A stretch of DNA of 6,969 nucleotides. Origin: a virus. Lineage: Duplodnaviria > Heunggongvirae > Uroviricota > Caudoviricetes. Positions 4,890 through 6,164 of the stretch are shown in pieces. Where the stretch lies: positions 1 through 6,969 of IMG/VR virus record IMGVR_UViG_2582580933_000008; one strand, 5' to 3'. The notes under the pieces are model-generated. The model saw nothing but the letters and a program-made list of their open reading frames with translations, had not been told where the DNA came from and did no database searches. A program made the translations under genes and the position numbers. Positions within the stretch are counted from its first letter, which is position 1. Each line of letters opens with the position of its first letter.

Positions 4890-5701
4890 GTACTCGCCTT
4901 AACTATATTTTTTGCAATATCTGCCGCTTTTTTTGTTGCGCTGTTTGTGACTTCGAGTATTGGTTTGGATACCGTATCAAGAGCACTCTGAAATTCAGTC
5001 TTGATTGTGTCGGAGATTTTTCCAGTGATTTCGCCAACAGATGACTTCAGTGATGACCATGATTTACTTAGCTCATCGACAGTAGATTCCCTGGCTCCGC
5101 CATTGGTTATTTGCGGATCAACTCCTACATCTCCCTGCGACTTATTGTTATCCGTTGGCTTCTGTTCTGACTGAGATCCGGAGAGGATAACCTCCATTTG
5201 CTGAATGACCTCCTGAAAATCAAGATAAACCGTCAGAAGAGTCACCCCCTTTTGAGAGTTAACTTCGTAATAGTGGTCAACAAGGTCGAAACTCTCCAGA
5301 GTTTCCTTCGGCGTTTCAATATCGTATGTTTTTGCAGAGGACAGCATCGTTTTGATTGTGTTCAGCGTGCTGTTCTGGCTTGTGAATGTGAGATCGAAAA
5401 TATTCGGGATGTTGCCGGAAAAACCAGTAAGACCATTTACGATGATTGCACATCTTACTCTGGCGGGTTCTTTAACTTTGTTGATGGACTGGTATTTCCC
5501 TTTCTCCACCGGAGCGTTTGTTATTTGCGCCCTTCCGCTTGGCTGTACGGATGCCATACCACTGAACTCAAGAGCAACCTCGCCAGTTTCCCTGTCACGA
5601 ATCACATACTGAGGATGCAGAACGCTGTCGATGATCGAAAGCGGAGAGCCACCACCGATAGCATTGAATATGTCTGCTGTGTTTAAATCGATTATGCCCA
5701 T
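4886..5701 (-). CDS. Hypothetical tail-associated protein (271 aa), first gene of the baseplate operon
   Basis: ATG 5701..5699 is preceded by GGAGA with a 4-nt spacer (minus strand ...GGAGAGTAG ATG). The N-terminal two thirds look globular; the C-terminal third is a Ser/Thr/Lys-rich, probably helical tail (...SKSWSSLKSSVGEITGKISDTIKTEFQSALDTVSKPILEVTNSATKKAADIAKNIVKAST). No LysM motif seen. It occupies the slot just upstream of the hub that Mu N-like or XkdP-like proteins occupy in related gene orders, but I cannot assign it. Confidence 0.55.
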   Translation of the reverse strand: MGIIDLNTADIFNAIGGGSPLSIIDSVLHPQYVIRDRETGEVALEFSGMASVQPSGRAQITNAPVEKGKYQSINKVKEPARVRCAIIVNGLTGFSGNIPNIFDLTFTSQNSTLNTIKTMLSSAKTYDIETPKETLESFDLVDHYYEVNSQKGVTLLTVYLDFQEVIQQMEVILSGSQSEQKPTDNNKSQGDVGVDPQITNGGARESTVDELSKSWSSLKSSVGEITGKISDTIKTEFQSALDTVSKPILEVTNSATKKAADIAKNIVKAST

Positions 5702-5710
5702 CTACTCTCC

Positions 5711-5743
5711 ATTAAACAAAAAACCCACCTGACGGTGGGTTTT
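5711..5743 (-). terminator. Rho-independent terminator hairpin (works in both orientations, stronger on the minus strand)
   Basis: Perfect 10-bp stem, 5720..5729 aaaacccacc and 5734..5743 ggtgggtttt, with a 4-nt loop tgac. On the minus-strand RNA the stem is followed by UUUUUUGUUUAAU. It starts 1 nt after the TAA stop (5747..5745) of the upstream gene and ends 9 nt before the RBS of the 271-aa gene. Confidence 0.65.
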
Positions 5744-5744
5744 A

Positions 5745-6164
5745 TTAGTGCTTGTATAGGTTGAACTCTCTATCAAGCCATATAACAAAAAATGTCGATC
5801 CAAGACGATAACCAACCATGGCTTTCAAATCATCAAATCTAAAAGCCAAGAAATGATCTACGTCTTCCGTTATATGACTGGGGATACCTGCTTTAATGGC
5901 ACCCCTTGCAATCTTCTCAAATCCAAGCTTATGCCTACCTTGCTGCTTAATCTCTGCCCATGTTAGTTGACTTAATCTGTATAATTTATCAGCTAAGCCA
6001 GCTTTCTCATCTTTTTGGCATTTCGTTATGCAGTGAGAGCTTTGGATGTAACAGAATGAAAATTTCGGTTTCTTTTGATCTGAATTCCCCCCTGACTGCG
6101 GCCCTAACTTTAACTTACCTGTAGATTCAGCAGGGGGGATAATCCTTTTAGATTTTCTTGCCAT
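5745..6164 (-). CDS. Candidate toxin partner of the Panacea-domain protein (139 aa, unrecognised family)
   Basis: ATG 6164..6162 lies 4 nt after the PanA-like stop TAA 6171..6169, suggesting coupled translation. The track's longer form starts at TTG 6239 and would overlap PanA by 71 nt. Translation MARKSKRIIPPAESTGKLKLGPQSGGNSDQKKPKFSF CYIQSSHCITKC ...RHKLGFEKIARGAIKAGIPSHITEDVDHFLAFRFDDLKAMVGYRLGSTFFVIWLDREFNLYKH. Features: a basic, probably disordered N-terminus, a C-x5-HC-x3-C cluster, and a C-terminal region with faint resemblance to HigB/RelE-type patterns (HKLGFEKI..G.P; GYRL...FVI...YKH). The toxin role is inferred from gene context only. Confidence 0.55.
   Translation of the reverse strand: MARKSKRIIPPAESTGKLKLGPQSGGNSDQKKPKFSFCYIQSSHCITKCQKDEKAGLADKLYRLSQLTWAEIKQQGRHKLGFEKIARGAIKAGIPSHITEDVDHFLAFRFDDLKAMVGYRLGSTFFVIWLDREFNLYKH

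Follow-up and report, generated by a model that had tools for sequence, protein, structure and literature searches.

The window analysed here is a 6,969-nt stretch of DNA from a virus of the Caudoviricetes (IMG/VR record IMGVR_UViG_2582580933_000008, positions 1 to 6,969). All positions given below are those of the window, all of its genes lie on the minus strand, and the element under study, a hairpin at 5720..5743, is read on that strand. The hairpin separates a two-gene cassette from a set of genes that encode a contractile-tail baseplate. On the upstream side lie a Panacea/SocA-domain antitoxin-like gene of the PanA type (6169..6612) and a 139-aa partner gene presumed to encode a toxin (5745..6164); on the downstream side, the baseplate module opens with a gene for a 271-aa protein (4886..5701). 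Our analysis makes it probable that the hairpin closes a cargo slot of the ant-moron type within a lambdoid late operon and that Q antitermination expresses the baseplate genes behind it.

A predicted intrinsic terminator sits in the intergenic gap

The partner gene ends with the stop codon TAA at 5747-5745, which is followed by a single T at 5744 and then by the stem. The first arm, AAAACCCACC (5743-5734), and the second arm, GGTGGGTTTT (5729-5720), enclose the loop GTCA (5733-5730) and form 10 perfect pairs, 5 G-C and 5 A-U, of which only the inner 6 bp make up a GC-rich core. The tail TTGTTTAAT (5719-5711) leads into the ribosome-binding site (RBS) GGAGAG (5710-5705), a TAG, and the ATG (5701-5699) of the 271-aa gene, with RBS and start codon together spanning 5699..5710. 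By the T-run criterion, the U-tract is UUUUUUGUUU (5714..5723), located after GGTGGG; its first four U also pair in the outer stem. The hairpin sits within the 43-nt gap between the partner gene and the 271-aa gene. The stem stops 9 nt short of GGAGAG, and because only 18 nt lie between the stem and the ATG, there is no space for a promoter there.

The hairpin was recognised in the sequence, in a terminator scan and by folding. It ranked first among the six matches of the scan in the window, and the folding energy of the hairpin alone is -15.3 kcal/mol. Of 1000 dinucleotide-shuffled versions of the whole window, only 15 contained, on one strand or the other, a comparable structure, taken as a perfect stem of 8 bp or more that includes five or more G-C pairs and is followed by a T tail. 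An Rfam scan of the whole window with E-values up to 1 gave no match, which leaves the hairpin and the cassette leader outside the described RNA families. Collectively, the locus combines a GC-rich stem-loop whose stem and loop lie within the ~5-14 bp and 3-8 nt of intrinsic terminators, a U-rich tract on its 3' side, a placement past the stop codon with the polarity of the upstream gene, and a structure that is conserved among relatives. Judged by its sequence, the hairpin is a strong intrinsic (Rho-independent) terminator, and it is predicted to terminate transcription in cells.

These results bear on the original prediction, which had been made from the letters of the window. It had placed the hairpin 1 nt past the TAA and 9 nt from the GGAGA of the RBS, and these coordinates and distances are exact. 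Its view of the element as a strong intrinsic terminator agrees with the top rank in the scan, with the folding energy and with the hairpins at homologous junctions described below, and its argument that no promoter fits between terminator and operon is upheld by the 18-nt spacing. It had also spoken of a 10-bp GC-rich hairpin; the ten perfect pairs stand, but the GC-richness is confined to the inner six.

Relatives keep a terminator at the end of a variable slot

We fetched 98 loci encoding relatives of the 271-aa protein and located the tape-measure homologue in each. Across 95 related loci, the tape-measure gene and the first baseplate gene are anywhere from -4 nt to ~5 kb apart. At six distinct junctions from distant relatives, the two genes overlap or adjoin (-4 to +2 nt), and none of these has a hairpin. 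Among the non-abutting distinct junctions, 51 of 60 carry a GC hairpin with a T-run, ending 17-23 nt ahead of the ATG. The stems vary (CCCGC/GCGGG, CCCAC/GTGGG, CCCAGC/GCTGGG, CCTCGC/GCGGGG, GCTCAC/GTGGGC, GCCCG/CGGGC and CCCCTG/CAGGGG), and the RNAalifold consensus hairpin has both-sided (compensatory) changes at three of its five pairs. MAFFT misregistered 5-bp against 6-bp stems, and stem conservation was judged by an explicit list of stems together with RNAalifold. The differing stems may represent independent acquisitions rather than covariation in one lineage; whichever origin applies, the aligned loci indicate that a terminator is kept at that place. The hairpin is retained even in nearly empty slots, where the gap has shrunk to 71 nt (locus L010) or 103 nt (L018).

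The slot itself holds variable cargo. The P22_AR_N antirepressor occurs in 36 loci, where it invariably shares the orientation of the late genes, and Arc-like repressors are encoded in 30 loci, mostly on the opposite strand. The other slot genes encode a LexA-like repressor, P63C, ORF6N, KilA-N/ANT, Rha, TnpB and the Panacea pair. The window lacks the mnt/arc/ant genes, which 30-36 of 57 related slots contain, and by its gene content the slot of the window is best described as a reduced derivative of the ant moron (immI region). Like a moron, it is present or absent between two conserved operon genes and has a terminator of its own, which travels with the cassette into P22-like phages and into locus L034. 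Like the ant moron, it occupies a place in the late operon immediately before the distal tail genes. The distinct base composition of a moron was not found: the GC content of the cassette, 0.41-0.43 against 0.36-0.49 in the flanking genes, gives no signal of foreign DNA.

Further elements were observed beside the hairpin in individual loci. In L008, L018, L046, L074, L075 and L082, the hairpin is immediately preceded by a conserved motif, TTCTAnCCATTAA..GCAATAACACGCAA, ~25-60 nt before the ATG; variants occur in L021, L064 and L085, and the motif is also found at ~1500-1530 of L034. The motif is upstream of opposite-strand genes that point away from the baseplate genes, with TAGAAT on the other strand, and is possibly the promoter or operator of those genes. 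At most 60 nt before the ATG of L019, L056 and L084, a ~30-nt insert with the palindrome GGGGATCCCC separates or replaces the 5' arm, and L019 additionally has a tandem duplication of the 3' arm and the RBS. In L094, a TnpB (IS605 OrfB / Cas12f-like TNB) gene occupies the slot at 4780-5892, and the hairpin is lacking.

Cassette and terminators are shared with P22-like phages

The leader, the PanA gene, the partner gene and the terminator form a portable module (5718..6934, minus strand), delimited by identity to P22-like phages. Over these 1217 nt, the window shares 99.8% identity with phiv205-1 and 99.5% with Salmonella phage Emek, which both belong to the genus Lederbergvirus. In both phages, the cassette block sits in the ant moron beside mnt/arc, and the Emek record annotates the same hairpin as a terminator. 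The stem-loop CCCACC-GTCA-GGTGGG is identical in 14 of the fetched loci, including Emek and phiv205-1.

Relatives in E. coli that have no cassette carry a different hairpin before the baseplate gene, CCCAGC-TTCG-GCTGGG, with a tail and RBS identical to those of the window. Emek has exactly this hairpin as its ant terminator, and the identity includes the final 45 nt of ant; in CUS-3 the intergenic region that holds the CCCAGC terminator is annotated as "bsq1; boundary sequence". The homology between the window or its relatives and the P22-like phages ends at the T-tracts. As both the cassette and the ant terminator are shared, it follows that the complete set of modules has passed between phages with short and with contractile tails.

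The baseplate genes lie in a late operon headed by a Q-like gene

Based on a host genome that is 99.9% identical to it, the window sits in a lambdoid prophage with a myovirus tail resembling that of Edwardsiella phage GF-2. The early part of the prophage comprises int, xis, cIII, kil, a LexA-like repressor gene, cro, cII, replication genes, nin genes and RusA. These are followed by the gene of a 204-aa protein, ~590 bp of non-coding DNA, holin, lysozyme, Rz, IS100 and a KilA-N gene. The structural part runs from terS, terL, portal and head genes through the DUF3383 sheath, the tube and the SLT/tape-measure gene to a variable region that includes the cassette, the hairpin, the baseplate genes and the tail fibre. 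All genes from the 204-aa gene through the tail fibre lie on one strand, and promoter-like sites across the operon are fewer than expected (17 observed against 31.7 in shuffles). From this layout, the baseplate genes are assigned to the distal part of a single long late operon that runs from Q onward. A further terminator-like hairpin stands inside this operon and separates the gene of the minor head protein from that of DUF2213. The IS100 element occupies 1812-3613 of locus L005 (NZ_CP148466.1 3356811-3358612), between the lysis genes and KilA-N/terS, and C-terminal fragments of tail fibres are found upstream of the cassette.

The gene of the 204-aa protein occupies the Q position, ~21 kb upstream of the hairpin on the same strand, at the end of the early-right operon, as befits a Q-type antiterminator. 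The protein (WP_004031416.1) matches phrog_753, "anti-termination protein Q-like", with an E-value of 7e-67. An AlphaFold model built from 25 homologues has a mean pLDDT of 77, and in a Foldseek comparison with the Protein Data Bank (PDB) the ten best matches are all Q21, with probabilities of 0.97-1.00 and target-normalised TM-scores of 0.51-0.69. Furthermore, a terminator-like hairpin, the presumptive leader terminator, lies ~155 nt past the Q stop codon. On the strength of the predicted fold, the PHROG name and synteny, the 204-aa protein is likely a Q21-type antiterminator. Polymerase modified by Q reads through intrinsic terminators efficiently, and Q loading requires a specific promoter-proximal site adjoining the Q gene. 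Once loaded at the late promoter, Q21 narrows the channel through which RNA leaves the polymerase and thereby prevents the folding of terminator hairpins (PDB 6P18, 6JNX).

The closest cultured phage with respect to the 271-aa protein is GF-2 (Gofduovirus), whose ORF24 is homologous to it with 66% identity. GF-2 carries N-like, CI, Cro, CII, O, P and Q-like genes and follows the same overall plan. Between its tape-measure gene and ORF24 lie two Arc-like genes and an Ant gene, and a terminator stands 18 nt ahead of ORF24 and the baseplate genes after it. Since GF-2 forms plaques with this terminator, a terminator at that place does not silence the operon.

Probable expression of the baseplate genes across the hairpin

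As no promoter fits after the stem, transcription of the baseplate genes must cross the hairpin. In the lysogen, the terminator would halt transcripts that start in the cargo, here in the PanA-partner cassette, or that are stray, and the baseplate and fibre genes would consequently be off. Upon induction, polymerase would start at the late promoter just downstream of Q, ~21 kb upstream of the hairpin, and would be modified there by the Q21-type factor. The modified polymerase would then pass the leader terminator, the head-gene terminator and finally the hairpin, and the baseplate genes would be transcribed. The tight wedging of the hairpin against the RBS would be an evolutionary accident, produced by a deletion between the PanA-cassette terminator and the P22-type ant terminator. 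Intra-operon terminators do occur in late operons with a single promoter, and the roles proposed for them are partial termination or the stopping of non-antiterminated transcription (PMC8022706).

Several observations weigh against this reading. The Foldseek E-values of the Q21 matches are only 0.035-0.3, the 204-aa protein has no significant sequence match in Pfam, NCBIfam or PDB, and its profile searched against PDB reaches Q21 only at an E-value of 0.86. Downstream of the Q gene, a sigma-70 scan gave no promoter, and a Q-binding element was likewise not identified there. In some relatives, the gene adjoining the hairpin is transcribed away from it, so the hairpin cannot in every case terminate the cargo gene beside it. 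In one host genome, IS100 splits the late operon between the lysis genes and terS and may affect late expression in that strain. Finally, we infer both termination and read-through at the hairpin, and since the scans found no cassette promoter, the transcripts that it would stop in the lysogen are postulated as well.

The original prediction had offered a choice: the baseplate operon is transcribed by read-through from a cassette promoter, or it is not transcribed. That transcription has to pass the hairpin stands, antitermination appears likely, and the antiterminator that was to be sought in flanking DNA has a candidate in the Q21-fold protein on the same strand; but the dichotomy omits the late operon upstream. 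In favour of a cassette promoter, the cassette is the nearest co-oriented transcription unit upstream and no promoter has room after the hairpin; expression of the structural genes would then be tied to a toxin-antitoxin cassette. Yet in a sigma-70 scan of the leader (minus strand, 6613-6934) no site reached 9 of the 12 consensus positions, the best candidate of a relaxed scan was weak, and no convincing cassette promoter emerged; moreover, Q would have to load beside its own gene. The association with the cassette is also dissolved by the relatives, because a terminator occurs behind cargo of every kind: baseplate genes whose proteins are 99-100% identical are preceded there by ant, P63C or divergent genes, those of the viable GF-2 follow different cargo too, and P22-like phages carry the cassette with no baseplate genes behind it. 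A tie between cassette and structural genes is therefore scarcely credible. We also regard as very unlikely that the operon is silent, in the sense that the prophage is a decaying remnant and the terminator marks a dead junction. Signs of decay exist, namely the deletion of the arc/ant immunity module, the tail-fibre fragments upstream of the cassette, IS100 in the late operon of one host and a tail-fibre gene that PGAP flags as partial. However, every baseplate frame is intact, and the protein accessions are those that relatives also carry; the tail fibre can be translated without interruption from ~794 to the edge of the window; viable P22-like phages, L and ST64T among them, have commonly lost immI (PMC2629481, PMC8022706); and the terminator is the normal state in the GF-2-like phage family, including plaque-forming GF-2 itself.

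A different use of the hairpin would be that of a programmed partial attenuator, which lets less late mRNA reach the baseplate genes than the sheath, tube and tape-measure genes and so sets stoichiometry, with or without Q. We consider this unlikely as the principal explanation, although it is compatible with antitermination by Q and does not exclude it. A Q21-fold protein is encoded in the host, and polymerase modified by Q is efficient at crossing intrinsic terminators; abutting distant relatives do without any hairpin, and the short gaps of L010 and L018 may be scars of lost cargo. Still, the hairpin is kept at those gaps and also where the neighbouring gene points away from it, the P22 ant moron has been reported to affect how often PLate polymerase reaches the tailspike gene (PMC2629481), and partial termination is among the roles proposed for intra-operon terminators (PMC8022706). 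A broader proposal, which we hold to be rather unlikely, is that the hairpin is a selected, conserved element with two roles: it would insulate or meter baseplate expression, and it would serve as a recombination joint for the exchange and deletion of immunity and defence modules between podovirus (P22-like) and myovirus (GF-2-like) late operons. Its persistence in nearly empty slots or beside divergent genes allows for a function of the hairpin itself in metering or insulation, and such a role has been discussed for P22 and phage L (PMC2629481, PMC8022706). Taken together, these comparisons leave the Q-dependent late operon, with the hairpin closing its cargo slot, as the probable arrangement.

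The junction resembles a deletion between two terminators

Among its 14 loci, CCCACC-GTCA-GGTGGG lies mostly inside the slot. It follows the PanA pair in L034 and the P63C gene in L033, L041, L042 and L045, and it stands just past the tape-measure gene in L029-L031, L036 and L040, facing a convergent Arc-like gene. In this last group, the stop of the Arc-like gene lies in the T-tract, so the hairpin is able to act both ways. In L034, PanA, the partner gene, hairpin 1, two opposite-strand genes, ant, one gene, hairpin 2 and the baseplate genes follow one another. Compared with L034, the window is hairpin 1 fused to the tail of hairpin 2. The sequences compared are GGTGGGTTTTTTGTTTA followed by GCAG in L029 and L033, GCTGGGTTTTTGTTTA followed by ATGGAGAG at hairpin 2, and GGTGGGTTTTTTGTTTAATGGAGAG in the window. 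The stretch TGGGTTTTTTGTTTA (5713..5727, minus strand) is common to both parental terminators and, from comparison with L034, L029, L033 and L026, is the putative crossover.

These alignments suggest that the wedging against the RBS most likely arose by a deletion between the terminators via the shared TGGGTTTTT(T)GTTTA, which removed arc/mnt/ant. That the event was a deletion and not an insertion is deduced from the prevalence of arc/ant in the relatives and in GF-2. The same junction is present in L026, where it follows a P63C gene. Among 5,426 complete E. coli genomes, just 3, each of poultry origin, have the exact partner-hairpin-baseplate junction, while each half of the junction alone is found in more of the 92 matching genomes. 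The exact 171-nt junction is present at two places each in NZ_CP148466.1 and NZ_CP148474.1, both chicken isolates, with copies including ~2022080-2022250 and ~4062324-4062494, respectively. Two copies per genome suggest two related prophages with the same deletion.

Other features of the window

The PanA-type gene was identified by a match to Pfam PF13274 (E-value 1.9e-24), with the RefSeq start ATG at 6612. The partner gene starts 4 nt past its stop codon in the same orientation. The partner protein matches phrog_8366, which is of unknown function, and weakly matches the C-terminal part of NsnC in PADLOC (E-value 5.9e-6); it has no match in Pfam, NCBIfam or PDB. By gene arrangement, the two genes would form a Panacea-type toxin-antitoxin-like pair, with toxicity of the partner and its neutralisation being presumed.

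The cassette is preceded by a conserved non-coding leader (6613..6934, minus strand), which is 100% identical to that of Emek. Folding of these 322 nt is unremarkable on both strands (z -1.2 and -2.0). Compared with phage EC.P3, positions 6700-6934 of the leader are 97.4% identical and the hairpin is fully conserved, while the coding sequences (CDS) reach only 68% for PanA and 59% for the partner; the flanks are thus far better conserved than the genes. Two readings suggest themselves: alleles were swapped through recombination in the flanking parts, or the leader has a function that has so far escaped recognition.

The 271-aa protein belongs to phrog_1830 and has a weak Dit-like profile match. 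By profile matches, the remaining baseplate genes (797..4889, minus strand) encode a Pam3_gp18-like plug, a hub, a GpV-like spike, a wedge, baseplate J and a DUF2612 protein. The plug gene (4587-4889) overlaps the hub gene by ~80 nt with the RefSeq start and by 116 nt with the longest open reading frame (4587-4702, minus strand); either the overlap is unusually long or a start is mis-set. The tail-fibre frame is open from an ATG just past the DUF2612 gene (~794, minus strand) to the window edge. The annotation of this gene as truncated (partial, N-terminus missing, in PGAP/RefSeq) was rejected, as the frame is open when translated.

Relation to known systems

The apparent paradox of promoterless structural genes behind a strong terminator is explained by standard lambdoid logic, and the layout is known from P22. 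The window is a new instance of a known design and reveals no new mechanism. It does indicate that the P22 ant moron, including a Panacea-type cassette and terminators, circulates between short-tailed and contractile-tailed temperate enterobacterial phages, with terminators serving as break-and-join points for module exchange. For the annotation of prophages, such terminators should not be taken as operon ends, and they can help to locate defence cargo.

The closest parallel is the ant moron (immI) of P22-like phages. There too, variable cargo lies in a Q-dependent late operon, 5' of the host-recognition tail genes, and an intrinsic terminator just ahead of the following structural gene closes a region that carries mnt/arc/ant together with genes for exclusion or defence. 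The likeness extends to the sequence, as the PanA cassette with its hairpin is 99.5-99.8% identical in Emek and phiv205-1 and the CCCAGC hairpin of the relatives is identical in Emek. In contrast to the P22-like phages, the phage of the window has a contractile tail, and its slot lies between the tape-measure and baseplate genes rather than between gene 16 and the tailspike gene (9). Moreover, the window is without arc/mnt/ant, its terminator is a hybrid of two parental terminators, and its RBS follows the terminator at 9 nt, whereas ~58 nt lie between the terminator and the tailspike start in Emek.

The slot also resembles the lambdoid morons (Juhala et al. 2000 and Hendrix et al. 2000, both cited in PMC2629481), which are present or absent between two late genes, have no role in morphogenesis and end with a 3' terminator; unlike these, the cassette yielded no promoter of its own in the scans and has no GC contrast with its flanks. 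With lambda tR' and the Q21 system (PDB 6P18, 6JNX) it shares an intrinsic terminator in the late unit, a Q21-fold gene that ends the early-right operon, and a presumptive leader terminator. Unlike tR', the terminator of the window is not in the leader but ~21 kb from the presumed loading site, and its antitermination by a divergent Q-like protein is predicted. Finally, the hairpin is comparable to the boundary sequences of P22-like phages (bsq1, CUS-3), short conserved intergenic stretches with a terminator at which homology between neighbours starts or stops; unlike bsq1, the junction in the window can be read at the nucleotide level as a probable deletion between two such sequences.

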